Below, piece by piece: positions 46,133 to 63,516 of a DNA stretch of 64,000 nucleotides (positions within the stretch are counted from its first letter, which is position 1; every line of letters starts with the position of its first letter). This DNA is from Clostridiales bacterium (GTDB taxonomy: Bacteria; Bacillota; Clostridia; Christensenellales; JAISNN01). Position numbers and translations under genes: made by a program. The stretch lies in NCBI GenBank assembly GCA_031276195.1, contig JAISNN010000032.1, positions 5,863-69,862 of the forward strand, written 5' to 3'. The notes beneath the pieces were generated by a model. The model made no database searches, was not told the origin of the DNA, and saw only the letters and a program-made list of their open reading frames with translations.

Positions 46133-46549
46133 GTGAAAAAATTAAAATCGATAGATTTATTTGCCGGCATAGGAGGCATTCGCTTAGGCTTCGATCGGGC
46201 GTTCGGCGATAAAATAGAAACGGTTTTCGTTTCCGAATGGGACGAATACGCTCAAAAGACATATAAGGCGAATTTCGGCGGCGGAGCGATTGCGGGCGAT
46301 ATAACCAAGATAAACGAGGACGACGTCCCCGTCTTCGATATTTGTCTCGCGGGTTTTCCGTGCCAAGCGTTCAGTCTCGCGGGGCAACGCAAAGGCTTTT
46401 TGGACGACTATAACGGTATGAGCAGAGGGACGCTGTTTTTCGATGCGGCTCGGATTTGCCGAAAACACAAACCGAAAGTCATTTTTTGCGAAAACGTGAA
46501 AGGATTGACCGTTCACGACGGCGGGCGCGGAGGGGATTTATATGCGTAA
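46133..46549 (+). pseudogene. C5-cytosine DNA methyltransferase, N-terminal fragment (motifs I-VI)
   Basis: DLFAGIGG, GFPCQAFS, ENVKG; homology stops at HDGG where the HNH gene begins. Confidence 0.8.
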
Positions 46550-47306
46550 AAATTGGACGCGCGATGAGATAATTTTAGCCTTTGACTTGTATTGCCGCCT
46601 GCCAAGCAAGGAAGTATTCGTTGGCAATCCAGCCATTCGCGAGTTATCCGCAATTTTGGGCAGAACCGAAAATTCAATTAAACTGAAATTGCAAAACTTT
46701 AAGAGTTATGATCCGTTTTATACGATGAACGGCAGAATAGGTCTTAGTCACGGAAGCAAGATGGATGCCGAGGTCGTGCAAGATTTTATATATAATTGGG
46801 ACGAATTAGTTGTACTCGCGCAAGAAATTCGCGGCAGGTTTGGGCTACCTAATATTGAAGCGGACAACGATTTACGGTCTTTAAACATACCTGCGGAGTA
46901 TAGTAAGGAAAGACTTCAAAAAACGCGTGTGAGGCAATCGTTTTTTAGAAATGCGGTAATTGCCGCCTACGGCAAAAAATGCTGTATAACGGGCATAGAT
47001 ATGCCAGAACTTTTAATTGCGTCGCATATAAAGCCGTGGTCGGAGTCAAACGATATTGACGAGAAAGCCAATCCGCAGAACGGATTATTGCTAAACGGTC
47101 TTCACGATTTAGCGTTTGACAAAGGTTTAATAACGATAAGTCTGGATTATAAGGTTGTTTTATCCGCTAAATTATATGATAATCTCAGCGAGCAGACGGC
47201 ATCGTTTTTCCGTAGGTACGAAAATCAACAAATCGCTTTGCCTAATCGTTTTTTGCCGGCAAAACGCTTTATCGAATATCATAATGATAGCATTTTTCAA
47301 AGATGA
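46542..47306 (+). CDS. HNH endonuclease (restriction-type, HNH_2-like)
   Basis: 'NWTRDEIILAFDLY' N-terminus; 'RVRQSFFR...CCITG...LIASHIKPW...NGLLL...HDLAFDKGLI'. Confidence 0.88.
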   Translation: MRKNWTRDEIILAFDLYCRLPSKEVFVGNPAIRELSAILGRTENSIKLKLQNFKSYDPFYTMNGRIGLSHGSKMDAEVVQDFIYNWDELVVLAQEIRGRFGLPNIEADNDLRSLNIPAEYSKERLQKTRVRQSFFRNAVIAAYGKKCCITGIDMPELLIASHIKPWSESNDIDEKANPQNGLLLNGLHDLAFDKGLITISLDYKVVLSAKLYDNLSEQTASFFRRYENQQIALPNRFLPAKRFIEYHNDSIFQR

Positions 47307-47318
47307 GGGTTAAAACAT

Positions 47319-47603
47319 ATGGGACGCAGAGAGAAAAACTTAGCCGTGAACATAATGCAACATTTATCCTGCCGGCAAGAGGACGAGTCTTTAAACGTAC
47401 CGATAGCCGTCAGCAGAGAAGCAATTGAAAGTTACGGCGTTAGTTTTGATATCCCGAACGACGATCTCGTGATATCGGCGATCAGACATCTTATCTATAT
47501 TATCAATCCTTGGAATAGGTTGGATATATGCACGGTTTTGGCAGAGCAATGCGGGTTTACGAAAGCGGAGGCTAAGCGTTATTTTAATGAAATTTATTTG
47601 TAA
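47319..47603 (+). CDS. Hypothetical protein
   Basis: 94-aa ORF with RBS-like GAGGG directly after the HNH gene. Confidence 0.5.
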   Translation: MGRREKNLAVNIMQHLSCRQEDESLNVPIAVSREAIESYGVSFDIPNDDLVISAIRHLIYIINPWNRLDICTVLAEQCGFTKAEAKRYFNEIYL

Positions 47604-47676
47604 TACGCTTTATTGTATTTTTTTAAGATACCTTTATTAAAATAAATAAATTGATAAATGTTTTGCGGCGCTTTGA

Positions 47677-48435
47677 AATTTCGACGTTTTAACGGCGGGG
47701 TTTCCTTGTCAGCCGTTCTCGGTAAGAGGAAAGCAACTCGGATTTAAAGATCCGCGCGGAAACTTATTTTTTGAGATTGCGCGGATAATAGATAAAAAGC
47801 GTCCGCAAGCCGTATTCCTTGAAAACGTCGCAAACCTTATGCGGCACGACGACGGCAAGACTTTTCTCGCGATATACGGCACGCTTGCGCGGTTGGGCTA
47901 TTACGTTACGTATAAAGTCCTCGACGCGCAAGAATACGGGGGCGCGCCGCAAAAGCGCGAGCGGATATTTATCGCCGCGTTTGAGAGTTACGAGGCGTGC
48001 GGGCGGTTTAGGTTTCCGGAACCTATGCCGCGGACGCTGTGTTTGAACGATTGTTTAAAGCGAACGGCAAAGCAAGAGAAGCCGTATTATTATACGTCCG
48101 AAAATTACTTATACGGGCAGTTAGAACGGATCGTTACCGATAGAGAGGCTTTGTATCTTATCACGGACGGCGGCGTTTCGGCAAAGAAATACTATATCGC
48201 TTCCGCTTTGAAGGCTAATATGGGAACTTTTCCGGATAGAATACCCGTTTTGCGCGACGATTACGGAGTAAGGAAACTTACCGAGGACGAATGCCTTGCC
48301 TTGCAAGGATTTCCGAAAGATTTTTCGTTTCCTAACGATATAACGAGAGAGGCGAAATATAAGCAGGCGGGAAATACGGTTTGCGTACCCGTCGTCGAGC
48401 GGATCGCCGAAAAAATAGCGGAGGCGTTGACGTGA
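47677..48435 (+). pseudogene. Second C5-cytosine methyltransferase, 5'-truncated (motifs IV-X)
   Basis: Open frame from 47677 reads NFDVLTAGFPCQPFS...VFLENVANLMRHDDG...PQKRERIF...RKLTEDECLALQGF...KQAGNTVCVPV; no motif I and in-frame TGA immediately upstream; first ATG at 47839. Confidence 0.75.
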
Positions 48436-48842
48436 GCGATATATTCGACAAAGAAAAACGCTCGTACGTAATGAGCAAGGTCAAAAGCAAAAAAAATAAA
48501 TCCACCGAGTTGAGATTAATAAAACTTTTTAAGGCGGCGGGAATAACGGGGTGGCGGCGCGGTTATCCCGTAAGGGGTAAGCCCGATTTTGTTTTCTTAA
48601 AGGAGCGGACGGCGATTTTTGTAGACGGTTGTTTTTGGCACGGACACGATTGCCGAAACGTTACGCCGTCCGATAACGCCGAATTTTGGAATAAAAAGCG
48701 CGCGGATAACCGTCTGCGCGACGAAAAGGTTACTAAACTTTTTGAATCGCGGGGCTGGACGGTTATTCGTATTTGGGAATGCGAACTCAAAAAGGGAAAC
48801 GCGGCGAAAACCTTAAAAAAAATATCGGACGCCGTTACATAG
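48432..48842 (+). CDS. vsr: Very short patch repair endonuclease
   Basis: GTG start overlapping the MTase stop; 'DIFDKEKRSYVMSKVKS', 'GKPDF', 'FVDGCFWHGH', 'IWECEL'. Confidence 0.92.
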   Translation: MSDIFDKEKRSYVMSKVKSKKNKSTELRLIKLFKAAGITGWRRGYPVRGKPDFVFLKERTAIFVDGCFWHGHDCRNVTPSDNAEFWNKKRADNRLRDEKVTKLFESRGWTVIRIWECELKKGNAAKTLKKISDAVT

Positions 48843-48910
48843 CGATTACACTTTAAAATTGCGTAAAATGCGGTTGAAAAACTTGCGCGCCGCGTAGTTT
48901 AAAGTGTAAT

Positions 48911-48935
48911 TATTATATAAAGTAATTTAAGTTTT
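48911..48935. repeat. Left 25-bp direct repeat (putative target-site duplication)
   Basis: TATTATATAAAGTAATTTAAGTTTT, identical to 62305-62329 (identity extends one further T). Confidence 0.9.
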
Positions 48936-49137
48936 TGTAAAATTGTCAATCCCTTTTTAATAATTTTTTAAAAAAATTTAATTTTTACATAAAGAATGGA
49001 GGTGCTCTTAGACTTTTGGAGGTGCGTGAGGAAACTTTTCTTAGAAAAGGTGCCTCACGGAGAGAAAATGTTAAAAAATTTATAGCACAAAAAGCCTATC
49101 AGATAGGATAAGCACAAAAAGAAGATGAAGTGTTAAG

Positions 49138-50118
49138 TTATTCGACTACTCCCCAATCTAATAACAGCAGTTCTTTACGTTTTTCTTTTGGCGTGAGCCA
49201 TTTTCTCAATTTATCACGCGAAGAAAGAACGGAGCTGGGAATATTATTAGAACGTTTCAAATAACTTTTCATTTGTTTAAACAAATCGGCATAAGAATAA
49301 AACTTCAATTTGACATAAAACCGCTCGTTATCGTTACGGTGGGAACGCTCGACCTTTCCGTTATGCCTCGGTGTCCGCGGGCGGATCAATTTATGTTTAA
49401 TCTTAAATTTATCACAAGCGATATCGAAGGCATGCTTTTCTTTTTTCTTCGGAAATAAAGTATATGTAAATTCTTGCCCGTTATCGGTTTGAACGATATC
49501 GGGTACATAACCGAAATAAGCGATTGCGCGTTTTAAAAAATCGACCGAAGAACCAGAATACTGTTCTCGATACGGATATATAAAACGTTCGCGCGTCGCC
49601 TCGTCGATAGCCGTATACTGATAAAACCGCATATCGGAATATTCCCCGGTGTAACATTCACAAGGAACGACCTTTACGTCTATCTGCATTTTAACGCCGA
49701 TTTGTTCGGGAGTATCATAAGGTTTAGGAACATATTTTGGTTTTTTTCGTTTCTTAACGGAATAATATCCGATCCGGCAAAGAAAACGGTAAAGCGTAAC
49801 CGGATCACGAACATATGAATGTTTAGAGCGAAGTTTGCCGTATAACTCGTTTAATCCGATATCCGGATTACGCCGAATCAAATTTGATATATTCTTAATC
49901 TCGTCGGCGGTTTGAGCGCGCGGATGAGGACTAAGCGGACGGGAAGATTTATTAAAAAGTGATTCGATCGTTCCGTCATATTGTCTACGCCAACGATAAA
50001 TAGATTGAACGGTACAATGATACCTCAAAGCGACATCGTCAATCCGTGCGTGTTGGCTCAAATTCAAAATTTTCAATTTTTCTTCCGGCGAAAAAGGTTT
50101 ATTATAATGCCTCGACAT
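49138..50118 (-). CDS. IS481-like DDE transposase/integrase (HTH plus rve core)
   Basis: N-terminal HTH 'VALRYHCTVQSIYRWRRQY'; catalytic 'MQIDVK', 'VQTDNGQEF', 'RPRTPRHNGKVERSHR'. Confidence 0.9.
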   Translation of the reverse strand: MSRHYNKPFSPEEKLKILNLSQHARIDDVALRYHCTVQSIYRWRRQYDGTIESLFNKSSRPLSPHPRAQTADEIKNISNLIRRNPDIGLNELYGKLRSKHSYVRDPVTLYRFLCRIGYYSVKKRKKPKYVPKPYDTPEQIGVKMQIDVKVVPCECYTGEYSDMRFYQYTAIDEATRERFIYPYREQYSGSSVDFLKRAIAYFGYVPDIVQTDNGQEFTYTLFPKKKEKHAFDIACDKFKIKHKLIRPRTPRHNGKVERSHRNDNERFYVKLKFYSYADLFKQMKSYLKRSNNIPSSVLSSRDKLRKWLTPKEKRKELLLLDWGVVE

Positions 50119-50181: not shown

Positions 50182-50805
50182 TTATTTTTTTGAATAATTA
50201 AAAATTAATCGCGGCATTTTATCATTCAGCCTCTTAATATCGTCCTCTTCCAAATTAATTAAATTAAAGCCGTTATTCTCATAAAGAGATATTTTATATT
50301 CTTTTCTATTTGCGTAATAATCATTGTTTTTTACGCCCCAAAATTCTATGTATATATCATTATTAGGTAAATAAAAATCTGACAATACATTTTCGTCGGG
50401 ATTTTTAGGAAGAAATACGCTTTTTTCATAAGCGTGAACATAACCGTTATGATAAAGCCAATTATCGATAATAACTTCGGAATATGAACGGACATAATGC
50501 CCGTCGTCGCATTGATGAGCGGCTTCCCATTTTTTGCGCGGATCGTCGTTAGAAAAATCTTCTCGTTTGATAATTACTTGTTTGGTATATTGCTCCGGCT
50601 TATATATCCTTTTCTCCGTTTTTTCAATAATAGTTTTTTCAACTTTTATTTCAGGATTGCATTTATGCCCGTCTTTTGCTTTATACCAAATCTTACAATC
50701 AGGGCATTGCACGACCTCGCCGCTGTCCCGCAATTTAAAGCAATTAACGCAAATAGGATACATTCCGCTTGGATGTCCGCATATTTGACACACTTTTCCC
50801 GCCAT
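50182..50805 (-). CDS. Zinc-finger plus PD-(D/E)XK-like putative nuclease
   Basis: CQIC, CVNC, CPDC; 'DGHYVRSYSEVIIDNWLY...HAYE...SDFYLP...YIEFWG'; RBS AAGGAG before ATG 50805. Confidence 0.7.
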   Translation of the reverse strand: MAGKVCQICGHPSGMYPICVNCFKLRDSGEVVQCPDCKIWYKAKDGHKCNPEIKVEKTIIEKTEKRIYKPEQYTKQVIIKREDFSNDDPRKKWEAAHQCDDGHYVRSYSEVIIDNWLYHNGYVHAYEKSVFLPKNPDENVLSDFYLPNNDIYIEFWGVKNNDYYANRKEYKISLYENNGFNLINLEEDDIKRLNDKMPRLIFNYSKK

Positions 50806-50861
50806 AATTTTACACTCCTTATAAAAGAGCGCGTAAAATACAAAAAGTGCGCTCTCTCGCT

Positions 50862-50998
50862 TTGTTACCACACAAATAAAAAACGCCGCCGCTTTTTACA
50901 TACGAAAAAGACACACCTTCTGCCGAATTAAAAAGGCGGCGCGTATATTTTATTTGTGTGGTAACAATAGTATAACATACGGCGAAATTAAAAGTCAA
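50862..50998 (-). promoter_or_regulatory. Promoter followed by a long inverted-repeat leader
   Basis: Minus strand TTGACT-N18-TATACT; 20-bp perfect IR TTGTTACCACACAAATAAAA (50862-50881 / 50948-50967). Confidence 0.6.
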
Positions 50999-51299: not shown

Positions 51300-52502
51300 T
51301 CAGCAATTGAGTTCGGTCATCGTATCGTATACGGGAATGTCCTCGTCCTCAAAAACATCGTCCCACAAAATAAATTTAACGCAAAAATCAAATATCCGCA
51401 TAGCGATATCGTCGGAACTTAATTCCGTTTCGATCTCGGTAGGCAAAGAAAAAGAATAAAACAACCGCTCGTCGGTCTTGCCCATATATTTCCATATATA
51501 TTCCATAGCGGGACGGTAAGCGGAACGGGAACGACCGTTTATCGGAGCAAAATCGTTCCGTCCGAAAGTATCGTAAAAAAAACTGTTTCGATTCCGCGTT
51601 TCCATACGGCGGCTTTCCGGATTATACTCCCTCGTCTCGCGTATTACGCCTATCATTTGCCCTTCGGGAATAAAAAACAAGCCGTGAAAATGTATGCGGT
51701 CGGTCTTTTTTCCGCGCTCTTTGACGACGGCATATTTCCAACCGCGACGCGTATGTAAATTTGACAGACATTTTTTAAGTTTGCGCTCGAAGTCGTAAAC
51801 GGAACACTTCTTGTCGTCGCAAGTAAAAGTAACGAAATGCGTCCAAGGATTGATATACGCCTTACGACGAAAACGCTTCTTGCGTTCGTATAGATTTTTT
51901 TCCTTGCGCTCGATACGCTCCGCAATATACGTATCGTAAAGAGGATTATCTCCGAAGCGGTCAATCAGAGCGGACTTTATATATTCACATCTTGCCGCGC
52001 CTTTCAACTTTTTATTAAAACATTCCAAGTACAAAGCGTCAAAATGAAAATCAATAACGCCGCGTTGCCGCCAAACTTTACACTCGATACGGTACGCAAT
52101 ATATGCGTCGAGAGTAAAACTATGCTTGCCGAGAACGACAGAGAGATACCACTCGGAATATTTGGAAATCAGACCGCCGCGGATATGAAGAAATTGCGCG
52201 GTTTGAGAAAGACCTTGCTCCATACTCTCCGAATAGAGCAAAGAAAAATACGGATCAAATTCAAGACGGCGTGAAACTTTATTTTTAATCGGCAAAGCGA
52301 TACGATGACGAGCGCCGTCCGCATAGACCTTATATTTTGTCTTGCCGTTATCGCTTTTCTTTTGTTTGCCGGGAAATTCGGATACGGAAAAAACGGGCTT
52401 TTCATTAGTCGCGGTAAGCCCGTATTCAACTTGCTTTTCCAAAGGTAGCGGACAAGACGCGTCCAACGGAATATCCAAAAAATCAAACTGTTTTAAAAAC
52501 AT
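51300..52502 (-). CDS. HUH rolling-circle replication initiator
   Basis: Motif I 'HFVTFT', motif II 'RIHFHGLF', motif III 'EYIWKYMGK'; start chosen at MFLKQF (RBS GAAGGTG). Confidence 0.85.
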   Translation of the reverse strand: MFLKQFDFLDIPLDASCPLPLEKQVEYGLTATNEKPVFSVSEFPGKQKKSDNGKTKYKVYADGARHRIALPIKNKVSRRLEFDPYFSLLYSESMEQGLSQTAQFLHIRGGLISKYSEWYLSVVLGKHSFTLDAYIAYRIECKVWRQRGVIDFHFDALYLECFNKKLKGAARCEYIKSALIDRFGDNPLYDTYIAERIERKEKNLYERKKRFRRKAYINPWTHFVTFTCDDKKCSVYDFERKLKKCLSNLHTRRGWKYAVVKERGKKTDRIHFHGLFFIPEGQMIGVIRETREYNPESRRMETRNRNSFFYDTFGRNDFAPINGRSRSAYRPAMEYIWKYMGKTDERLFYSFSLPTEIETELSSDDIAMRIFDFCVKFILWDDVFEDEDIPVYDTMTELNC

Positions 52503-52804
52503 ACAAACACCTTCGTAACACGTTCGCTTGCGGGTGTAAACGGGCAAGCGGCTGTATTTTTCGCCCGCGAAAAATCTCCGCCGGCAACTTCTTTTCACTC
52601 CGTGAAAAGTATGCCCCGTTGACACGCCGCATTTTTTGCGCTTTTATATCGTCGCCGAAAGCGACAACGGGAAGATAAACTATCAAACAAGCCGCTTTCG
52701 GAACGAATATTGTAGCGCAAAAAAACGCTCTCTCGCCGCGAGGAAATTATCCGGTTTCCTTTTTGCCTCAGCGATCCGAAAAGATAAACGGTAAGCTTAC
52801 CGCT

Positions 52805-53515: not shown

Positions 53516-55666
53516 TTACTCCTTTTCATTGTCGAGATATTTAAATAACTCGTTTACAAAATAACTGTTTTGACCTTTAAGCTCATCGAAACTCGCTTTT
53601 TCGGTTTCGTATTCTTTAACGTCCGCGATACCTACGGCGGAACGAAAAGTTTTTGTAAAAAAATAATCGCTGAAACAATCGGTAGAAAAACGGCGGGAAT
53701 AAATTTTCTTATTCATAAGATAATAAGTATGCTTCTCAACATTACCGTCAAGCGTACCTTGCTCCACTTCAAGAGCGAGTCGACAAAAACCGAAAGTGTT
53801 ATATATACGCTTGTAATAAGTATTTAATTTACCCGCAATACTTTTTAACATATAAATCAAAAGCGAATTATCGCCGCGCAAATAACGCATTTCGCGATAA
53901 AAATTCACGAAACGGGAAAAAATTAAATCATACAATAATTCCTCCACAAAAAACAAAGGCAAAGCGAGAATCTGATCGGAGCCGCCGCGGATATGAACGA
54001 TATTACATAACTCTCTCGCGTCCGCTCCCAAACTTTCGGGACGCTGTTCGTCAAGCAAAACCTTTACGAAAGGAAAAAAATCGACGGTAGAAGAATGTCT
54101 GATCATTTTCAAGAAAAAATTAAAACCGTCGTTCTTTTGGTTCGCGGTAAGATCGGTCTTCTTTAAACCTTGATTCTCGACTTGATTTCCGCGCTCCTTG
54201 CCGGCTTCGGTTATAACCAAAGCCCCGAAATCAAAAGAATCACGGTTAAAATTATCCTCGATAACTCTGCGCCCTAAACGGATAGCGTCAAAATCAAGAA
54301 TATGGGAATGACGGCTATACGCTGCCATAAGACGGGAATCCCGTCGAAAAAAATCATCGTTCCATAACGGGAAATTACCGACGTCGGAAATTACAACGTC
54401 CTCGCGGATTGAATAATTTGAAACTAAAAGCGAACTTTCAATCACATAAATAAAATACAACAAAGCATATGTTTCCAAAACATCCCAAAGTCCGCTTATT
54501 TCAAGCCCGTTGTTATAATACAAACCATACCTCTTAAAGTCATAACCGAAACAATCCTCCGATTTACCGCTTCTTTCAAAAATTTCACGCCGCCGGGAAA
54601 CAAAAGTCCGGCAAGTAGCAAGATTATATACCTCGTGAGCCGCAAAAGCGGAGCGCAAATCTAATTCAAAAATAATCCACGGAAAATAAGGAAATTTAAG
54701 ATCGTTTTCAAGCAGTAAGGAAAAAGCCTTATCGCGAAAAATATATGTCTGTGATAAAGCCATATCGGTCATTAGCGTAGTTTTTTTCTTGCCCATCGTA
54801 CCGACGATCATATTTACAATCGGAAGTGAATTAATAAACCCGCGATCGCGAAGTTCATAACGACGAAGAACGGAATAAGCTATTTTACGGCGGAAATAAT
54901 CGAATAAGAAAACCGCCGATCCGACCCAAAAATACCACGGCACAATGCGTAGCGGAATAGCAAGATCAACTATAAATCTATAAATCTGAGAATAAAAGAT
55001 ACCGAAATCAAAACTAACGACAAAATAAAACAAAAAAGCAAGAATAGATAAAACAACCGTCATCAAATTTAAATTTATAGCCCAAATAAAAAGCCAAAGC
55101 TTAAAATATACCGTGTGGTCACGCAAAAAAGAAAAAAAGCCGGATAAAAAATTGCGAAAGGGAATATATAAAATACGGGATACGCGCTTAACAAATTTAA
55201 GCGGAAAAGTATCTCTGTCATAATTGTTATTTTGCTTTTTAACGGAATTATATATAACAAAAACAAGAAGTATCAACACGGGTAAAAAAAGCGTTACGAC
55301 GGTCAAAACTCTGTATAGCAAAAGCCCGACAAAAGCGGCATAAGCCGAAAAATTTGCTTTGGTAAAAAGTAAAGACCAAAGCGCGGAAAATTTTTCAACA
55401 AAACCCGAATAGTCGGACGGAAAAGAAACGGTGATATCGGACGGCGGCAAAATCGACGGCTGCGCTACCGTGGGAGTTACCTCGAAAGGCAAATAAAACA
55501 GTTCGCAAAAATAATAACCGAGCGAATTCAAAAAATCCTTTAAAGCCAAAAAAGAACGCGACAGCGAATCTTGAAAAAAGAAAATCCCGCACAGCACAAA
55601 AATCACGGTCAAAAAACCGCAAATAAAATGCCGAAACTCAAATAATTTTATTTTTTCAAAACCCAC
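53516..55666 (-). CDS. pI/Zot-like morphogenesis ATPase with N-terminal transmembrane segments
   Basis: About four TM segments, then Walker A 'IVGTMGKKKTT', Walker B-like 'ALVITE', 'KMIRH' and 'LLDEQRPESLGADAREL' (Zot-like Q/R motifs). Confidence 0.7.
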   Translation of the reverse strand: MGFEKIKLFEFRHFICGFLTVIFVLCGIFFFQDSLSRSFLALKDFLNSLGYYFCELFYLPFEVTPTVAQPSILPPSDITVSFPSDYSGFVEKFSALWSLLFTKANFSAYAAFVGLLLYRVLTVVTLFLPVLILLVFVIYNSVKKQNNNYDRDTFPLKFVKRVSRILYIPFRNFLSGFFSFLRDHTVYFKLWLFIWAINLNLMTVVLSILAFLFYFVVSFDFGIFYSQIYRFIVDLAIPLRIVPWYFWVGSAVFLFDYFRRKIAYSVLRRYELRDRGFINSLPIVNMIVGTMGKKKTTLMTDMALSQTYIFRDKAFSLLLENDLKFPYFPWIIFELDLRSAFAAHEVYNLATCRTFVSRRREIFERSGKSEDCFGYDFKRYGLYYNNGLEISGLWDVLETYALLYFIYVIESSLLVSNYSIREDVVISDVGNFPLWNDDFFRRDSRLMAAYSRHSHILDFDAIRLGRRVIEDNFNRDSFDFGALVITEAGKERGNQVENQGLKKTDLTANQKNDGFNFFLKMIRHSSTVDFFPFVKVLLDEQRPESLGADARELCNIVHIRGGSDQILALPLFFVEELLYDLIFSRFVNFYREMRYLRGDNSLLIYMLKSIAGKLNTYYKRIYNTFGFCRLALEVEQGTLDGNVEKHTYYLMNKKIYSRRFSTDCFSDYFFTKTFRSAVGIADVKEYETEKASFDELKGQNSYFVNELFKYLDNEKE

Positions 55667-55811: not shown

Positions 55812-55929
55812 TTGACTTTCAAAACTTTATACAGTATAATAAGCAATAGTTAAACGATTCAATCGTTTATTCCCGCCGATATTGGATTGCGGCATTGCCC
55901 CGAACGGATTAGTTTCGGGGATTTTTTTT
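55812..55929 (+). ncRNA. Promoter plus ~80-nt candidate sRNA, convergent with ORF 55909-56352
   Basis: TTGACT-N17-TATAAT (55812-55840); hairpin TAAACGA-TTCAA-TCGTTTA; terminator CCCCGAA...TTCGGGG-A-T8 overlapping the ORF's stop codon. Confidence 0.65.
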
Positions 55930-56352
55930 ACCTCGAAATATATCCATTTTCTTACGGTTTTCAAGTGAAGGAATAGAACTTTTAAAAACTTTATTTCTAA
56001 TCTTCTCTACATCTTGACCCGACACATCCATATTAGGATGATTTTCACGAAATTTCTTATTTACACGTATCGGCGCGCCCTCGTCATCTTGTATCTCTAC
56101 ATAATGCTTAAAATACGATTGACCCTGCTGATAATTTTTTAATCGCGTACGGTTTTTACCGTCGCGCGAAGAAAGCGGAACGACAGCAAGATCGTTTCGT
56201 TCATTTGCCTCAATCACCACAACAGGACGTTCCTTTACAGAACCCGTACACTTTCCGCTAAAATAATTATCATGAGTTATCAATGTTCTGCCTTGCGGTA
56301 CTCTACCGTTTACGGTTCTATTCTTATTTAATCGTTTCCTATTTTTACTCAT
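55909..56352 (-). CDS. PemK/MazF-like protein without adjacent protein antitoxin
   Basis: 'KERPVVVIE....LAVVPLSS' matches the PemK core K-x-RP-hhh ... hhP-h-S/T; RBS AAGGAG. Confidence 0.7.
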   Translation of the reverse strand: MSKNRKRLNKNRTVNGRVPQGRTLITHDNYFSGKCTGSVKERPVVVIEANERNDLAVVPLSSRDGKNRTRLKNYQQGQSYFKHYVEIQDDEGAPIRVNKKFRENHPNMDVSGQDVEKIRNKVFKSSIPSLENRKKMDIFRGKKNPRN

Positions 56353-56391: not shown

Positions 56392-58446
56392 TTACTTTCT
56401 CTTTTTGTATTTTCCTTTAATCCCATCCAAATAGATTTTATTGACGATCTTATTTTTCCTTCGTCCGGACGGCTTTAACAAACCGAGTCCGCCGAATAAT
56501 ACGGACAAAACGGACGGAACAAGGGTTGCCACGGCATACAAAATAAGTATTAAAAGAATAATACCTAAAACCCACTTTAAAATTTCCAATAATTCTTGCC
56601 ACCAATCACCGACGTCAAAAATACCGGTAGGAGGCGTTAAACCGGGCAACACGTCTATCGGGTCGGAAACGGCGGGTATAACCCGATAAACGCCGTCGCG
56701 CGCAAACGTCAAAGAAATTATATCGAAATTAAAAAAGTCGGTAGTCTGAACCGTATACGCTTGACCGGACCAATGAGAATCTAACGGACGATAAAACTCA
56801 TGCTTATAAATATCGAGCGGGAAACCGTCATAAGACGTTTGAGCAAATCTAAAAAGATAAGTATGCTGTCCCGCCGTATAAGCTTGATTTTGTATCACGG
56901 AATAATCGTCTTCCGAGATAAAAAGATTATCCCAATAATGATCGTTATTAGGAATAAAATTTGTAACATCCTCAATCATCTTAACGTTTGTAAACGTCGT
57001 TCCATAATTTTTACCGTCTTGACCGAAAATAATATTCCAAATATTTTTAATATTTACCGTCCCGCCGACGGAAAGATATGCGTCGTCAACGGTAAAATCA
57101 TATAAATTATAGCCCCTTGTCCTACCGGTATCTACGGCGCTATCCCAATAAACGGATCGGATAAACTGTCCGCCGTCAGAAAAAGCCAAATCATTACCGA
57201 AACGATCTTTTAAATATGTATTATACTCCTCGGTCCGCGCAAAATCGGTCTCTAAAAAATTCTTAATATCCGACGGCTTAACGACTAAATCGGAACTATA
57301 AAAGTACCAATACAATTTATCCAAATACGGACCGCCGTTAACGCCGGGAATACCGATAATGTAAGGATTCCAAGCCCACCACCAAGTGGGAATATTAGTT
57401 CCGTCAAAAAGATAATTATAATATAAACTCCGCGCATCATCGGAAAGATCCTCGGCGGTAGACAATCCCAGACGGCCCGGGATATAATTATTCAGCGCGC
57501 CGCTGGACGAAACCACAATAGGCTTAGTTTTATACTCATACCACTCCGCACGAATCCCGTACAAGTCTCCGTAAGTGTTAATATAATAATCGGGTACGGA
57601 AAAATATACGGAAGTAAGTTGATCCTCGGCATAATCTCCGCGCTCCGGATTATCGGTGCGCCAATATGTATCCTTAACTTCAAGAGATACCGTTTCCATA
57701 TCGGTAACGGAACTTATCAGCGTGCTATCGGCGTATCCGTCGGCTCCATACCCGGACGCAAAGCCCTTAAAAATATAAGAACCGCCTACGGCGTGATCAA
57801 CGGATTTATTTTTATTAACACCGTTTGCCGCGGCATTATCGTAACGAAATTCAATACCGGATATATCATAACGGCGTTCGCAATTATCCAATACCACGCC
57901 GGATAAATTCTGATCGCGAACTGATTCGGTAACTCTTTTTAAAATCGTTTTACCGTTTACGGCAGCATGATCTATAACGCGATATTTATAAAATAAACCG
58001 GCATAATCTCCGGAGGAAACCGAACAAAATTTCAATTGAAATTTTTCATAAGAATCAGGAATGCCGTTGCCGTCGTAAGACGTTGCAATTTCTATTCTGT
58101 CGGTCATAGAAGTTTTATTAAAACTAAAACCTTGCGGATTGTAAATATAAAGATAAAGACAATAATTTATTTGAGCGTTAGCGTAATAACTGTAACAATA
58201 TTCAACAAAACTTAAAACGGATAGTTTATGTTCGCTCCCGTCGGAATCATAAGGATAATCGGATAAATCAAAAGGTTCACCGTTGACCGTAGAAAATATC
58301 AAATCGTCTAAAACGTACGTACCGTCAAAACCATTCTTTTCCGACAAAGCGAAAGAAAACCCGGATATATCTAAAAACGGTATACCCGAACAAAAAATAA
58401 CAAAAAATGCGACGAATAAAAACATAAAAAATTTCTTACGTATCAT
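56392..58446 (-). CDS. Large surface protein with N-terminal signal/TM and C-terminal TM anchor (pIII/spike-like topology)
   Basis: 684 aa; hydrophobic N-terminus, 'WVLGIILLILILYAVATLV' near the C-terminus then a basic tail. Confidence 0.7.
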   Translation of the reverse strand: MIRKKFFMFLFVAFFVIFCSGIPFLDISGFSFALSEKNGFDGTYVLDDLIFSTVNGEPFDLSDYPYDSDGSEHKLSVLSFVEYCYSYYANAQINYCLYLYIYNPQGFSFNKTSMTDRIEIATSYDGNGIPDSYEKFQLKFCSVSSGDYAGLFYKYRVIDHAAVNGKTILKRVTESVRDQNLSGVVLDNCERRYDISGIEFRYDNAAANGVNKNKSVDHAVGGSYIFKGFASGYGADGYADSTLISSVTDMETVSLEVKDTYWRTDNPERGDYAEDQLTSVYFSVPDYYINTYGDLYGIRAEWYEYKTKPIVVSSSGALNNYIPGRLGLSTAEDLSDDARSLYYNYLFDGTNIPTWWWAWNPYIIGIPGVNGGPYLDKLYWYFYSSDLVVKPSDIKNFLETDFARTEEYNTYLKDRFGNDLAFSDGGQFIRSVYWDSAVDTGRTRGYNLYDFTVDDAYLSVGGTVNIKNIWNIIFGQDGKNYGTTFTNVKMIEDVTNFIPNNDHYWDNLFISEDDYSVIQNQAYTAGQHTYLFRFAQTSYDGFPLDIYKHEFYRPLDSHWSGQAYTVQTTDFFNFDIISLTFARDGVYRVIPAVSDPIDVLPGLTPPTGIFDVGDWWQELLEILKWVLGIILLILILYAVATLVPSVLSVLFGGLGLLKPSGRRKNKIVNKIYLDGIKGKYKKRK

Positions 58447-58453
58447 AACAACC

Positions 58454-59041
58454 TCAAAAATTAATTTGATTAATATCCAAAATCACAGATTGAACGGGAA
58501 CAACATTATTAAATTCTATATAAACAACAGACGCTCCGTTATCGGGGATTACTTCAAGCAAAAAGTATAAATGAGCCGCAGTCAAAACGGAAGACATAAC
58601 GACTTCCGAATCGGAATACAAAGATTGCAACACCTCCGACATAGATTTATCAACGGACATAATAAAATAATCACCTTGACCGTCTATATCAAAAGCGACG
58701 GATAAATCTAAAATTTTACTAAACAAATGCGGCGCACCGTCAACATAAAAAACAAAATCATCAGCGGCCGACACATTCGGCAAAACTCTTACGGTGTACC
58801 CGCTCGGCTTCTCAACCGCTAAAAAATCCAAAGTATATCGACAATCAAAACGCACGGAAGCCCTGTCAAACTCAACCTTGTTCCCCGATCCCATATAAAA
58901 AACACCGTCGTAAACAACGTAAAAAGTTTCAAAACCGGTCGTAAAATTACGAGTAAACATAGACAAAAAACCGATTAAAAACATAACCGCTAATGAAAAT
59001 AAAACGCCGAATATTATTTTAGATAAAAACTTCTTACGCAT
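58454..59041 (-). CDS. Hypothetical protein with N-terminal TM anchor
   Basis: 195 aa, 'IIFGVLFSLAVMFLIGFLSMF'; closely coupled to its neighbours. Confidence 0.7.
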   Translation of the reverse strand: MRKKFLSKIIFGVLFSLAVMFLIGFLSMFTRNFTTGFETFYVVYDGVFYMGSGNKVEFDRASVRFDCRYTLDFLAVEKPSGYTVRVLPNVSAADDFVFYVDGAPHLFSKILDLSVAFDIDGQGDYFIMSVDKSMSEVLQSLYSDSEVVMSSVLTAAHLYFLLEVIPDNGASVVYIEFNNVVPVQSVILDINQINF

Positions 59042-59043
59042 AA

Positions 59044-60606
59044 TTAGCTCCCAAATAAAAATGATATATCGTAATATACAATAGAATCATCATCAAAAAT
59101 AACAAAAAGATAGTCACCGACAAGAGACAAATCACGAATAGAATTTTCAAAAGTATGATACACCCAATTAAAACCGTCGGTAGAATACGCCAAAGTAAAA
59201 TTAAAATACGAAAATAAAAAACCGTAATCTTCACAACCACAAAAATCAAAATGAGAATCCTTAGAAAAAGGTTCCTTAAAATAATTAATCCAATTATAAC
59301 CGTCAGAACTATAAATAGAAGTAAAGACAGCCGTATTACTCGAAGCCGATAAAACTACAACTTTTCCGTCTATAAAAAAATAAGAAAAATAAGTAGACGA
59401 AAAACCGACACTAAGAGAAACGGACGTAAAAGTTTCACCGTCGAAACTAACATAAAAACGATCTTTTCCTAAACCAAAAATATAAAATACATCATTATAA
59501 ACATAAAAAGTACGAGCAGAAAAATCTAAAATTTCAGCCCAATTAGTTAAGTCGGAGGAACGGTACACCGAATCAATGCCGCAAAAATAATAGTAACCGT
59601 TAAAATAAAACAAACCTTTGTCATTACCATAACGATCAAAAGAAGAAGACCCCGATATCCAATTCTCACAATCATAACTATATCGATAAGAAAAACGCAA
59701 ATGACGAGAACCATAAACAAAATAAACACCATTAACATAAGAAAAACTAAATCGATTAAAAGAAAAGTTACTATCACCGGAAAAAGCAAAATAAAAATTC
59801 ACACAATCAAAAGTATAATAAAGACTATTATTATATGAAAAGAAAAATCTATCGTTTAAATAATCCATATAAATATAACGATCAATTTCTTGGAACGAAG
59901 TCGAATCGTTTAAATCTGATCCGAAATAATAAGAAGAAGCAGAGGAGCCGGGAGACGAAGGCGCACTAACAATATATAAACCGTTACCATAAACGAGAGG
60001 AACCCGAATAGAATTACTATCGGATAAAGCAAGAGAATAATCGCTCGGATTATCCAAAAAACTTGTATATTTAACGATACACTCGGCATACACTTCCGGA
60101 TTACTGACCGAACTCGCCCGAATGATAATATCCTCGCCAAAAACCTGCAAAAACGACACCTCCGCAGAATTAGACCCGGATTCGGCAACATCAACACTAA
60201 TATAATCAAATACGTCCTTATCAATTATCCACGACGAAATGGGATTAAACCAATAAGTCAACCACTCAATATCAGAATTAGTCGCGTCAAACGGATCAAG
60301 CTCCGCCGTCAATAAAACGACAGAGCCATCGGAAGCAATAGAAGTAGAAGTCATAAAAAAACCATCGGCAACAGATAAAAACGGAAAATTTTCAACCTCT
60401 TCACCGCCGGAATCTGCATTGTCTTCATTATCGCCGATATCAGAAACGGGAATCACCGGATCGATTTTATTTTCATCGTCGACAATTATATTTTGACGAT
60501 CCTCAGGAACATCGTTAAAATATAACGAATAAACTAAAACTCCGATAAGCGCGATTAAAATCACGCTTATAACGACAATCAAAGTAATTTTAATTTTCTT
60601 ATCCAT
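59044..60606 (-). CDS. Membrane-anchored protein with Ig-like domain and Asp-box (BNR) repeats
   Basis: N-terminal TM; 'LTAELDPFDATNSDIEW...IRASS...AECIV' Ig-like region; SYDCENW, SSDLTNW, SFDGETF, SSDGYNW, STDGFNW. Confidence 0.7.
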   Translation of the reverse strand: MDKKIKITLIVVISVILIALIGVLVYSLYFNDVPEDRQNIIVDDENKIDPVIPVSDIGDNEDNADSGGEEVENFPFLSVADGFFMTSTSIASDGSVVLLTAELDPFDATNSDIEWLTYWFNPISSWIIDKDVFDYISVDVAESGSNSAEVSFLQVFGEDIIIRASSVSNPEVYAECIVKYTSFLDNPSDYSLALSDSNSIRVPLVYGNGLYIVSAPSSPGSSASSYYFGSDLNDSTSFQEIDRYIYMDYLNDRFFFSYNNSLYYTFDCVNFYFAFSGDSNFSFNRFSFSYVNGVYFVYGSRHLRFSYRYSYDCENWISGSSSFDRYGNDKGLFYFNGYYYFCGIDSVYRSSDLTNWAEILDFSARTFYVYNDVFYIFGLGKDRFYVSFDGETFTSVSLSVGFSSTYFSYFFIDGKVVVLSASSNTAVFTSIYSSDGYNWINYFKEPFSKDSHFDFCGCEDYGFLFSYFNFTLAYSTDGFNWVYHTFENSIRDLSLVGDYLFVIFDDDSIVYYDISFLFGS

Positions 60607-60653
60607 ACAAAAAAACCTACTTTAAATAAAAATTATCTTTTAAATTTTTTGCC

Positions 60654-61565
60654 CTAATTTACTTTCTTTCCAAGTTCTATAATCGTCGCGACTATAACGG
60701 ACATTTTATTATCAATTTCATGCAAATACTCCATATTCGCAGACAACATATCACTCAGCAATACATGAAAATCCACATAGTTGCTCAAAGAATAACCCAT
60801 AAATCCTTGATAAAATTGATATAAAGCATACGCTTCATTGCGTCTTTCTAACTTTTCGGCAACTTCGGCTTCATAATTAGGATTAGACAAAATACCGGTA
60901 TTGGCTTCATAAACCGAAACGATATAAGAATAATATGTATAAAGCAAATCAACCGCGTAAACATCTTCATACACGGCATCACGAGTAAATATATGATTGC
61001 CGCTACCCAATATCTCCGAACCGTCCGTCGTTTCATAAAGATTTAATCCGGCTTTACAGCGTTGATAAAAAGAAAAATTAATATCATAAGCATTAGACGG
61101 AAAATACCCAGAACCAAAAGCGGATCTATACGTATTTAATTGGCTTGAAGTAATACCTAACACATTATACATATATTCGATACTACTAACGTAAATCATT
61201 GAGGAATATAATGAATCCGCTAAACTATAAGCATCCGAAACTTCACTAAACGAGCGGTCAATTAATATTCTTAATTGTTCATTCTCCGCTTCAACGGCAA
61301 GTTTCATATCTTGATACGCTTCAAGTTCACTTTCAAGTAACGTTATAACCTCCGCGTAAGAAACCTCGCCGTCAACCGGTGAAGATTGATCGGTTTTAAA
61401 CATATCGAAAGCAAAAACCGACAAACCGGACATTAAAACGACTAAAAACATAATCGATATGACGGAAACAAAACTCGGACGGGTTAAAATTTTTAAAACG
61501 GAACCCGAACCGCCGCGCAAACGATTCCTAAGTTTTTGAAACTTACCATTAAATTTTTGCTTCAT
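60654..61565 (-). CDS. Hypothetical protein with N-terminal TM and coiled-coil
   Basis: 303 aa; RBS GAGGTG; 'VISIMFLVVLMSGLSVFAF' then heptad-like stretch. Confidence 0.7.
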   Translation of the reverse strand: MKQKFNGKFQKLRNRLRGGSGSVLKILTRPSFVSVISIMFLVVLMSGLSVFAFDMFKTDQSSPVDGEVSYAEVITLLESELEAYQDMKLAVEAENEQLRILIDRSFSEVSDAYSLADSLYSSMIYVSSIEYMYNVLGITSSQLNTYRSAFGSGYFPSNAYDINFSFYQRCKAGLNLYETTDGSEILGSGNHIFTRDAVYEDVYAVDLLYTYYSYIVSVYEANTGILSNPNYEAEVAEKLERRNEAYALYQFYQGFMGYSLSNYVDFHVLLSDMLSANMEYLHEIDNKMSVIVATIIELGKKVN

Positions 61566-61644
61566 AAAACACCTCTTTTTTGATTTTTACTAAATTAAAA
61601 AAATAGGGGATATTACAAAAAACATAATACCCCCTTTAAACAAA

Positions 61645-62160
61645 TTACATAGAAGACAAAACCATTTCAAGCAAATTTTTATCCGACGTTTCTTTCGGCT
61701 TTATTTGCGCCTTATAAACGCCCGTATCGTCAATATTACGGGCATAATAATACATACCGCGCTTAGTAATCTTGCCGGTACGATTGTCCTTAACGGTATA
61801 AGACTCCAAGATAAGTTCAGCGTTCAAAGCGTCGCCGAAAACAAAATCAAGAACCTCATACCCGCCGATATCAAGAGGAACAAAATCCACACGGGAAGAA
61901 CGACCGCGCAAATTAAACCTCAAAAAATAATTACGGTAATCTTTCTTGTTCGCTCCGCGCACAACTTCACGCTCGATAAACAATCCCGTCGCAATTCCGT
62001 CAACCGTTTCGACGATTCCCTCCGAAAAAACGGCACCCTTTTCCGCGCCGCTCGATTCCGCTTCGCTTGTTTCCGCTGCAACCTTTTTTACTTCCGCTTC
62101 GCTTGCTTCCGTTGCAATTTTTTTCGCTTCCGCTTCCACTTCCGCTACAATTTTAGACAT
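61645..62160 (-). CDS. Soluble hypothetical protein, first gene of the element (possible ssDNA-binding protein)
   Basis: 171 aa; strong RBS AAGGAG; acidic repeat N-terminus, aromatic/basic beta-rich core; SSB role is a guess from position. Confidence 0.65.
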   Translation of the reverse strand: MSKIVAEVEAEAKKIATEASEAEVKKVAAETSEAESSGAEKGAVFSEGIVETVDGIATGLFIEREVVRGANKKDYRNYFLRFNLRGRSSRVDFVPLDIGGYEVLDFVFGDALNAELILESYTVKDNRTGKITKRGMYYYARNIDDTGVYKAQIKPKETSDKNLLEMVLSSM

Positions 62161-62263: not shown

Positions 62264-62293
62264 AATAGATGTGTTAAAATTAACACATCTATT
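62264..62293. promoter_or_regulatory. Perfect 14-bp inverted repeat at the right end of the element
   Basis: AATAGATGTGTTAA-AA-TTAACACATCTATT. Confidence 0.65.
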
Positions 62294-62304
62294 GTAATAC
62301 AACA

Positions 62305-62329
62305 TATTATATAAAGTAATTTAAGTTTT
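62305..62329. repeat. Right 25-bp direct repeat (putative target-site duplication)
   Basis: Identical to 48911-48935. Confidence 0.9.
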
Positions 62330-62577
62330 TATATTGATTTTTTTTGCGTTATTTGGTATAATGGTATAAATTGATTTTTTAAACGGCGTATTCGTCGTTT
62401 TGATATACGGTATACGGATTAAACGGCGGGATTTCGTATTTTGTGTGATAGTGCGCGGATTAAACGGCGGGATTTCGTATTTTGTGTGATAATATGCGGA
62501 TTAAACGGTTGAATCCGGTATTTTATATAACCGTATATAAACCGACGGTATATAAATTCCGCTTAAATCGGAGAGGT

Positions 62578-63516
62578 ATGATGACGGATTTTTTTAACGG
62601 GCTTGTCAAGGTTTTGTCTTATGTCGGGCCGGGGTATGTTTTCGTTTTGTTTTCTGCGGCGGTTGCCGCGGCTTTTTTGGTTTCGCTTCGTTTTTCGTCG
62701 CGCGGTTTGAAGCGTTACGCGGACGCTATGCTTAGCGCCGCGGACTATCTCTCCGACGAAAGAACGGGTTCGCTCGGAAAGAACAACGCGGGTTATTTTT
62801 TCCGCAAATACGCCTGTGATTTTCCCGTCGCGATGCAAAACCGCGTCGCGGCGTATTTGAATTCTATGGAAGTAAAGCCATCCCGTTTTATCACCGAGGC
62901 GGACTGTTTAAAGCCCGTGTCTTTCGGCGCGGAACGAAAGAAATTTTTGACCGTATACGATATGATCGCGCGGACGGCTTTTGCCGCCGCGTCCGCTTTT
63001 TCGCTGGCATACGGCGGCGCGGAGGCTTTCGGGGCGGCGGCAGTCCTGCCGATGACCGCGGCGGTCGCGCTCAGGTATGTTTTGAAATTCAAAAACGATT
63101 CGCTGGACTCTTATCTGACGGACGCTTTTTATACCCTTATCGACGCTATGGACGCCGCCGTCGTTCTAAAAAACGATCCCGAGGACAAAAGTCAAGACGG
63201 AATTCTCAAAAAAGCGGCGGCTTTAATCAAGGAACTCGTGGACGAGGAGAGGGACGTCCAAAGATATCACTACATAAACGAAACGGACGGACTTTGCCGC
63301 GAGTTGAGAGGGGAACGCCTCAAAGAAATCGCCGACAACGTGGCGGTCGTGTGCGGCGAGGATACGCCGCTCGCGACGTTAAAACAGATTTTTAATATGC
63401 TTTCGGAATCGAAATATTTCTACGCGACCAAGGAGGAAACCGAACTGTTGAACGGCTGCCTTGTGAAACTGAAAAACACGATAATAAGAATCGAAAAGGA
63501 TATTATAAATTTGTAG
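62578..63516 (+). CDS. Hypothetical membrane protein (host-like codon usage resumes)
   Basis: RBS GGAGAGG before ATG-ATG; N-terminal TM plus two central hydrophobic segments. Confidence 0.65.
   Translation: MMTDFFNGLVKVLSYVGPGYVFVLFSAAVAAAFLVSLRFSSRGLKRYADAMLSAADYLSDERTGSLGKNNAGYFFRKYACDFPVAMQNRVAAYLNSMEVKPSRFITEADCLKPVSFGAERKKFLTVYDMIARTAFAAASAFSLAYGGAEAFGAAAVLPMTAAVALRYVLKFKNDSLDSYLTDAFYTLIDAMDAAVVLKNDPEDKSQDGILKKAAALIKELVDEERDVQRYHYINETDGLCRELRGERLKEIADNVAVVCGEDTPLATLKQIFNMLSESKYFYATKEETELLNGCLVKLKNTIIRIEKDIINL

Follow-up and report, generated by a model that had tools for sequence, protein, structure and literature searches.

The transposase of IS481-family insertion sequences is a DDE enzyme of about 300-330 aa, encoded by one ORF, in which an N-terminal HTH precedes an rve domain; the elements are bounded by terminal inverted repeats with TGT...ACA tips. 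The duplications listed for this family range from 2 to 15 bp and mostly measure 6 bp (PMC10045372). In the IS1202 family, where TGT tips are also found, duplications of 27-28 bp have been described for the IS1202 subgroup, 15-17 bp for ISTde1 and 5-6 bp for ISAba32, the transposases comprise 400-500 aa with a Q at E+7, and the ISs are 1.3-2.0 kb long. Insertion may be oriented in this family, with IRL facing the target, which for ISAba32 is the XerC side of dif; according to the same sources, no target was found for the long-duplication IS1202 groups (10.1101/2022.12.17.520857; PMC10132070). The eukaryotic IS481EU elements of parabasalids, described by Kojima and Bao in 2023, combine TGT...ACA tips with duplications of about 4, 15 or 25 bp, which vary within one family and are rarely about 25 bp. 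That paper also sets out discrete duplications, about 5, 15 and 25 bp long, for IS481, IS1202 and IS481EU, and its authors propose that the duplications change in steps of one helical turn (PMC10045372).

A second group of described systems consists of the transposase-integrating filamentous phages and cryptic inoviruses, which have a small genome coded on one strand, a rolling-circle Rep and a Zot/pI-type ATPase, and which lack a tyrosine integrase. In the plectroviruses and the filamentous phages of Neisseria, integration is carried out by a transposase. In the survey by Roux et al. (2019), 'integration or selfish element' is the category to which transposases are assigned (PMC6813254).

The element considered here is contained in a window of 64 kb, a term used throughout for the whole stretch of DNA that was analysed. 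It resembles the first group in its transposase and its ends, and probably the second in its genes. Our main reading, to which we attach a probability of about 0.8, is that a 25-mer found on both sides of it is a target duplication, and that a 13.4-kb inovirus-like element was inserted by its own IS481-like transposase in register with a host promoter.

The 25-bp repeat and the repeats of related elements

The window contains the 25-mer TATTATATAAAGTAATTTAAGTTTT in exactly two copies, one at 48911-48935 on the side of the transposase (IRR) and one at 62305-62329 on the IRL side, both on the + strand and with 0 mismatches, and the distance between the copies is 13,369 bp. None of 100 dinucleotide-preserving shuffles yielded a 25-mer match, and a chance origin of the repeat was rejected. 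A T shared by both copies follows the 25-mer and brings the repeat to 26 bases, after which the two places differ (G versus A). Since the left inner border reads TGTAAAATTGTCAAT... and the right one ...ATTGTAATACAACA, the enclosed DNA has TGT and ACA tips; the original prediction, which had placed an exact 25-mer (26 bases with the T) just outside such tips on both sides, was accurate on this point.

The transposase-proximal end (IRR, 48936..48961, - strand) reads ...GGGATTGACAATTTTACA and carries TTGACA 8 nt from its ACA tip, an anchor common to 16 other phage-type ends and to simple ISs with a related transposase. The far end (IRL, 62264..62304, - strand) reads TGTTGTATTACAAT, with a TGT tip and TGnTACAAT-like -10 letters, and this sequence is followed by a palindrome. 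The ends of the IS-type and phage-type elements are alike, with ACAAT at positions 10-14 from the TGT tip and, at the opposite end, TTGACA at 8 nt from the tip. The palindrome (62264-62293), directly inside the far end, has a 13-bp stem, AATAGATGTGTTAA TTTT AACACATCTATT, and a palindrome stands at the equivalent place in the related locus L019; its possible roles include binding of the transposase, a hairpin at a replication origin and termination.

The element lies between the hairpin after a vsr gene and the promoter of the next gene. The left flank (46542-48842, + strand) encodes an HNH endonuclease, a C-5 cytosine methyltransferase, of which apparently only the C-terminal 198 aa form an ORF, and a Vsr mismatch endonuclease, an arrangement of the restriction-modification type. 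The hairpin after this island (48835-48857 / 48898-48920) overlaps the left copy of the duplication. When both flanks were compared with the five other genomes of the genus in search of the window's own empty site, only gene matches of 65-69% identity were obtained, on separate contigs, by which no such site was defined.

Related loci were collected with a transposase alignment from species-representative genomes, which gave 525 relatives, and the best 80 loci of these 525 were kept. Elements were termed phage-type where Rep and cargo lie upstream of the transposase, and the sample of such elements with both ends in reach comprises 23 cases, namely the window, six loci, 15 further loci and one viral contig. 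With the tips assigned by the conserved anchors, flanking repeats were found in 17 of these 23, with lengths of 24 bp (two), 25 bp (nine) and 26 bp (six), and no two are alike in sequence. An 11.5-kb element from a genome of the same genus, with a transposase 64% identical and homologous ends (TGTTGTATTACAATAGA... and ...ATTGACAATnnnnnn), is likewise flanked by a different 25-mer. The duplication was undetectable in six of the 23 (L224, L252, L253, L254, L262 and L266). In L224 (IMGVR_UViG_3300045988_184145), the sole relative in the viral contig collection, both ends are present at 2523 and 15087, 12.6 kb apart, with unrelated flanks, possibly through recombination between two copies or through a chimeric assembly. 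At L252 (G160:C4:117400-133500), an element lacking a flanking duplication, a GC-rich sequence of 37-44 nt, GAACTTGCAGCGCGAAGCACCGGCGGCAAGTTCCGCGGTCAAAA, was observed in at least three copies inside and beside the element.

Simple ISs with a related transposase and homologous ends, 1.11-1.22 kb in length (1114-1220 bp), have repeats of the same kind. These were detected in 19 of 23 complete copies, with lengths of 24 bp (one), 25 bp (12), 26 bp (five) and 27 bp (one), the mode being 25, and were absent in the remaining four. In one MAG, four identical copies of a simple IS are accompanied by four different repeats. The flanks of a simple IS in Parvimonas sp. C2 are contiguous in a P. parva genome with an overlap of 26 bp, so that the sequence is present just once where no insertion has occurred. 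For the phage-type elements, L260 was compared with five genomes and no clean empty site was found among them; its promoter-side flank has a 92% match in one genome up to the -10, the DNA upstream of the match is diverged, and the other flank is unmatched.

Direct repeats around a filamentous-type prophage might also be the core of an att site used by a site-specific recombinase, such as host XerCD or a similar enzyme. Filamentous phages often integrate at repeats by means of host or phage recombinases. Direct repeats of at least 10 bp around inovirus prophages were accordingly taken as att sites by Roux et al. (2019; PMC6813254). An att core should be the same at independent insertions and be accompanied by a recombinase, but the repeats all differ in sequence across 36 insertions while their length is kept, and Pfam and PHROG searches found no tyrosine or serine recombinase in the element. 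The repeats moreover lie exactly outside IS-type TGT/ACA tips, and simple ISs with the same kind of ends make the same kind of repeats, one of them having an empty site. The att reading was thus rejected and is extremely improbable. It is from the constant length, the unrelated sequences and the one empty site together that a target duplication follows. The original prediction had proposed a comparison of the flanks of homologous elements and had kept an att core as its alternative; with homologues carrying unrelated repeats of 24-27 bp, mode 25, the comparison decided for the duplication, and the alternative fell away.

Affiliation of the transposase

The last gene of the element (49138..50118, - strand) encodes a single-ORF DDE transposase of 326 aa, for which Pfam matches to rve (7e-15), rve_3 and HTH_32/23/28 and a PHROG match to a transposase group (phrog_8463, 1.2e-27) were obtained. 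It is present in a single copy in the genome. Among the NCBIfam profiles, NF033577 (IS481) is the best family, with 171.2 bits and an E-value of 3.4e-50, a score below the cut-off of 224. The catalytic residues D147, D212 and E257 align with those of IS481 references, and the motifs QxDxK, QTDNGxEF and PRTPxHNGKVERSH are common to the enzyme and two plasmid IS481 references. In a plasmid search with 60 matches listed, all features that bear a name are IS481-family transposases, some matches being unannotated, and identities are below 37%. Most enzymes of the family found here measure 314-338 aa.

Comparators of the IS1202 type were obtained as Bacillota hits of the NCBIfam profile ISNCY_2. These are enzymes of about 450 aa, from elements with TGT ends and 17-bp duplications, and they have a Q seven residues after the catalytic E; because of the size, the Q signature and the 17-bp duplications, we take them to belong to the IS1202 family. 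In one genome, nine copies have 17-bp duplications that differ from one another. The window's enzyme scores 33.7 bits with the ISNCY_2 profile (NF033594), against a cut-off of 250. At E+7, all nine family members aligned (five phage-type, four simple IS) have an N, which is N264 in the window, and the five ISNCY_2 members aligned have a Q. A quick maximum-likelihood tree of 60 sequences, rooted at the midpoint and containing few references, with the IS1202 subgroup proper (27-28 bp) not among them, unites 49 enzymes in one clade (SH-aLRT 100) on a long stem, as sister to two of the five plasmid IS481 references (SH-aLRT 92), with the ISNCY_2 enzymes across a long branch. The enzymes of the simple ISs form one sub-clade (100) among the phage-type enzymes.

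Taken together, the profiles and the tree indicate that the enzyme is a divergent IS481-like lineage outside the sampled IS1202-type clade. It resembles the IS1202 family in its very long duplication and TGT tips, behaviour by which membership is not established, and it is not counted as a member because the size, the E+7 signature, the profile and the tree all disagree: the enzyme has about 320 aa instead of 400-500, the simple IS 1.11-1.22 kb instead of 1.3-2.0 kb, and the residue is N instead of Q. From the IS481 family as described it differs in that the duplication measures 24-27 bp in 36 insertions, in that the enzyme also serves a phage-like element of 10-15 kb, and in that insertion is in register with promoters. 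The likeness to IS481EU lies in the tips and the duplication length, whereas here the host is bacterial and about 25 bp is a fixed mode.

The original prediction had called the 326-aa enzyme IS481-like, with which both the best NCBIfam family and the tree agree, and the phylogeny that it proposed, drawn with few references, places IS481 references nearest and the IS1202-type ISNCY_2 enzymes apart. Its statement that the IS1202 group makes duplications of roughly 27-28 bp needs to be narrowed; long duplications are indeed on record, but that length applies to the IS1202 subgroup proper only (PMC10045372; 10.1101/2022.12.17.520857).

Cargo genes and the nature of the element

The 13,369 bp enclosed by the repeats hold about a dozen ORFs, and all long ones are on the - strand. 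Upstream of the transposase is a gene for a Cys-rich protein of 229 aa (50182..50871, - strand) with weak matches only, to a zinc finger and to phrog_9019; it occurs in some relatives, on either strand. It is preceded by a rolling-circle Rep of 441 aa (51300..52625, - strand) of the inovirus G2P / plectrovirus ORF2 type, with 40.1 bits for PF23343 at a cut-off of 27.8. The five sister Reps tested also score above the cut-off. A Rep homologue stands upstream of the transposase in 35 of the 80 loci, and cargo families lie downstream in two of the 80, as single hits. Across the 35 loci, which come from Clostridia, Bacilli and Mycoplasmatota, the transposase is the last gene after Rep in two cargo subtypes. 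The two subtypes have Rep, transposase and ends in common and differ in the ATPase.

In the sister subtype this ATPase has 271-282 aa. Three of these proteins, of 271-278 aa, were compared with PF05707 (Zot), for which the cut-off is 20.3; the one in L019 reaches 30.2 bits, and the two others fall slightly short with 18.5 and 17.6 bits. Where the sisters carry the Zot-like ATPase, the window's subtype carries a membrane P-loop ATPase of 716 aa (53516..55666, - strand) with the Walker A motif GTMGKKKT and N-terminal transmembrane segments, a candidate assembly or export ATPase. Of 8,000 candidates scored, 3,551 proteins are related to it at E<=0.001 and share about 60% identity among themselves, and no Pfam domain was found in it or in them. 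Contigs of roughly 9.7-10 kb carry many of these relatives and may represent complete free genomes. Comparison of the 716-aa ATPase with the Zot-like set by hhalign was weak (probability 1.4%), with a QRP...IREL stretch aligned, and in the Atlas the ATPase part adjoins clusters with Zot in 14-20% of their members, at scores of 0.90-0.91, a result that serves as a lead only. The AlphaFold model is poor (mean pLDDT 56.6, with the ATPase part below 50), and a profile search of solved structures gave nothing meaningful, the best E-value being 0.034. In viral contigs, a search with the single 716-aa sequence found no match, and a search with an alignment found one, on the contig already hit by the transposase.

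Further upstream, a protein of 147 aa (55909-56352, - strand) has a weak PemK/MazF-like match (E 0.005, below cut-off), and its gene is possibly a toxin-type passenger. A conserved protein of 684 aa, family F3 (56392..58446, - strand), has N-terminal signal-like and C-terminal transmembrane segments and is a candidate adsorption or minor coat protein. Four further cargo genes (58454..62160, - strand), for proteins of 195, 520, 303 and 171 aa, have no Pfam or PHROG match, and three of the products begin with transmembrane or signal segments. A coat protein could not be identified in the element, where small hydrophobic ORFs are candidates only. A free circle was sought in viral contigs as a junction of the end motifs with a gap of 6-36 nt; there were 0 matches, which carry little weight because the pattern admits exact 23-letter matches only. 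Three matches of the junction pattern in metagenome contigs were dismissed as chance, as those contigs have no homology to any element protein, and a 14-letter end motif gave more than 118 unrelated matches in viral contigs and is uninformative.

The gene content suggests that the element is probably an inovirus-like temperate phage. It shares with filamentous phages a small genome coded on one strand, a rolling-circle Rep and the lack of a tyrosine integrase, with Zot-like ATPases in its sisters, and it departs from them in the window's ATPase, with its 716 aa, its N-terminal membrane domain and no Pfam match. The duplication could also be real and the element non-viral, either a large transposon or an IS without its former inner end that moves a neighbouring rolling-circle plasmid-like or defunct prophage module, with the transposase as a selfish passenger. 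Several observations suit such an origin: neither a coat protein nor a virion or free circle was detected, the window's ATPase is without a Pfam match, a single relative came from the viral contig collection, and the clade of simple ISs shows the enzyme living alone. Selfish and domesticated transposases are, in addition, indistinguishable by sequence (Roux et al., PMC6813254). The constant position of the transposase after Rep in two subtypes and 35 loci speaks against a passenger, as do the 17 cases, all at different sites, in which the duplication flanks the whole unit of 10-15 kb; the G2P/ORF2 type of Rep, the Zot-domain ATPases, the one-strand order and the many membrane proteins suit filamentous phages. 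A non-viral element is therefore considered improbable.

If the element is such a phage, it would use the transposase as its integrase; the clade of simple ISs uses a related enzyme on homologous ends. The transposase would bind both ends of a circular double-stranded form, the phage replicative form presumably being the donor, and the ends would be joined to target strands about 25 bp apart, after which gap repair would duplicate the interval. The original prediction had proposed a short transposase that inserts a viral genome with a long stagger; its target duplication was borne out, while the stagger chemistry and the viral cargo are parts that we infer. The portions of Roux et al. (PMC6813254) covered mention neither an IS481-like enzyme nor a duplication of 25 bp, nor insertion in register with promoters.

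Host promoters beside the insertions

Host DNA outside the duplications was aligned for 36 insertions, with the IRL-side flank read away from the element. In the aligned flanks a TTGACA-like sequence occupies +5 to +10, TG occupies +25/+26 and TATAAT occupies +28 to +33; the spacer measures 17 bp, and the -35 hexamer begins 4 bp beyond the IRL-side duplication. T is present at +5 in 35/36 and at +6 in 30/36, G at +7 in 27/36 and A at +8 in 26/36, and the letters T, A, A, A and T of the -10 hexamer occur in 29, 27, 26, 29 and 27 of 36. At an offset of 4, 24 of the 36 flanks score at least 10 of 14, against 0-1 of 36 at nine other offsets; the remaining 12, among them the closest complete relative, L019, with a score of 5, stay below 10 at this register. 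For the first 26 insertions, background positions in those loci reach at least 10 of 14 at a rate of 0.17%, and the mirror position in the other flank has a mean of 4.65 against a background of 4.30. The -35 is taken as the anchor because spacers of 16 or 18 bp shift the -10 and not the -35. The insertions are thus oriented and in register with a host promoter of the sigma-70/sigma-A type, a finding that goes beyond the original prediction. The genes downstream of the targeted promoters have no mutual similarity at an E-value of 1e-5, and by eye several of them resemble genes for ribosomal proteins or translation factors.

In the window, the promoter in register lies at 62334..62362 (+ strand), with the -35 TTGATT at 62334-62339, a spacer of 17 nt containing TG, and the -10 TATAAT at 62357-62362. 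It was called independently by a promoter scan, with 10 of 12 matches and TG, and is directed away from the element, toward an ORF ending at 63516. In the leader between the promoter and the downstream ORF of 344 aa, for which no Pfam match was obtained, two tandem 41-bp repeats (93% identical) were observed at 62415-62496.

On this register, strand transfer on the IRL side would take place 4 bp upstream of the -35 and that of the other strand about 29 bp upstream, with the promoter always facing away from IRL. With the IRL-side joint 4 bp upstream of the -35, the promoter keeps its core and about 29 bp of native upstream DNA. Recognition might be mediated by bound RNA polymerase or sigma, or by direct read-out of the DNA by the transposase.

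The ISs of the ISNCY_2 comparators have a similar pattern. TTGACA directly adjoins the 17-bp duplication in all 11 copies with a repeat (T 11, T 11, G 10, A 11), and TG and TAnnnT follow 17 bp after the -35. The copies are L225, L227, L229, L230, L233, L237-L239 and L241-L243 (from G090, G121, G151, G140 and G088), and eight of the 11 are from one genome, each with its own duplication. The sampled ISNCY_2 members thus resemble the present family in adjoining the -35 hexamer, and promoter-proximal targeting is common to the phage-type element, the simple ISs and the IS1202-type family.

The promoter-like motif might instead mimic the transposase's own ends, with no recognition of a promoter or of RNA polymerase. 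Since IRR has TTGACA and IRL has TGnTACAAT, the host promoter resembles an abutted IRR-IRL junction, and both ends carry these letters 8 nt from their tips in IS-type and phage-type elements alike; for a promoter to arise from the two ends, their tips would have to adjoin at a distance of about 1 bp. Other IS families are known to target end-like sequences. The target departs from the ends in several respects, however, with T as the third base of the -10 in 21/36, and C there in 1/36, where most IRLs have C, C before the target -35 in 1/36 where IRR has C, and nothing conserved beyond the hexamers. Strand transfer also falls upstream of the -35, outside the spacer, in which a junction would have its tips, and the IS1202-type ISs give a similar promoter pattern with different ends. 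End mimicry consequently appears rather unlikely, and promoter recognition is favoured because the target follows the sigma-70 consensus and the unrelated ends of ISNCY_2 are accompanied by a like pattern.

A broader proposal, put forward tentatively and with more doubt than confidence, is that the long-duplication transposases of IS481 and IS1202 are promoter-guided integrases that dock on a sigma-70/sigma-A promoter, in the simplest case on the RNA polymerase holoenzyme or on the -35 that it reads, and provide phages with a safe-harbour system. Upstream of the -35, the cuts would be made at 4 and about 29 bp in this family, and at 0 and 17 bp in ISTde1-like ISs. The long stagger would span the upstream-element zone, so that the promoter would stay working after insertion, and the system would have been adopted by filamentous-type phages of gut Firmicutes and Mollicutes. 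The eukaryotic elements Ty3 and Tf1 offer a parallel, in that an integrase-fold enzyme inserts at a fixed position upstream of transcription units and spares the genes. In these elements the enzymes work through host transcription factors, and the duplications are short, unlike those of the family described here. Insertion of Ty3 has been reported to be targeted to the promoter/TSS (PMC6673722).

Long duplications in this superfamily are already published, whereas the promoter register was not found in the literature searched, which was mostly open and held no description of promoter-directed insertion; this includes the covered parts of the IS481EU paper (PMC10045372), and the supplementary flanks of 229 IS1202-family insertions may hold the pattern. 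The flanking repeats of a large and mostly unannotated group of gut prophages are thereby shown to be made by a transposase and not to be att sites, which changes how such prophages are delimited and how their integration is modelled. The class of duplications of about 25 bp is extended to small bacterial IS481-like enzymes, in support of stagger steps of about one helical turn. The result gains interest over the original prediction, since the long duplication is accompanied by targeting that is precise, oriented and promoter-proximal, and both the 25-bp and the 17-bp families insert in fixed register and orientation beside the -35 of ordinary promoters. If the promoter register holds, it would constitute a new mode of target choice in bacterial transposition, give long duplications a functional reason, and offer a compact single-protein system for the insertion of DNA upstream of promoters. 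Should the promoter-guided proposal prove true as well, these enzymes would provide bacteria with an equivalent of Ty3/Tf1 targeting, and the length of the duplication would be explained.
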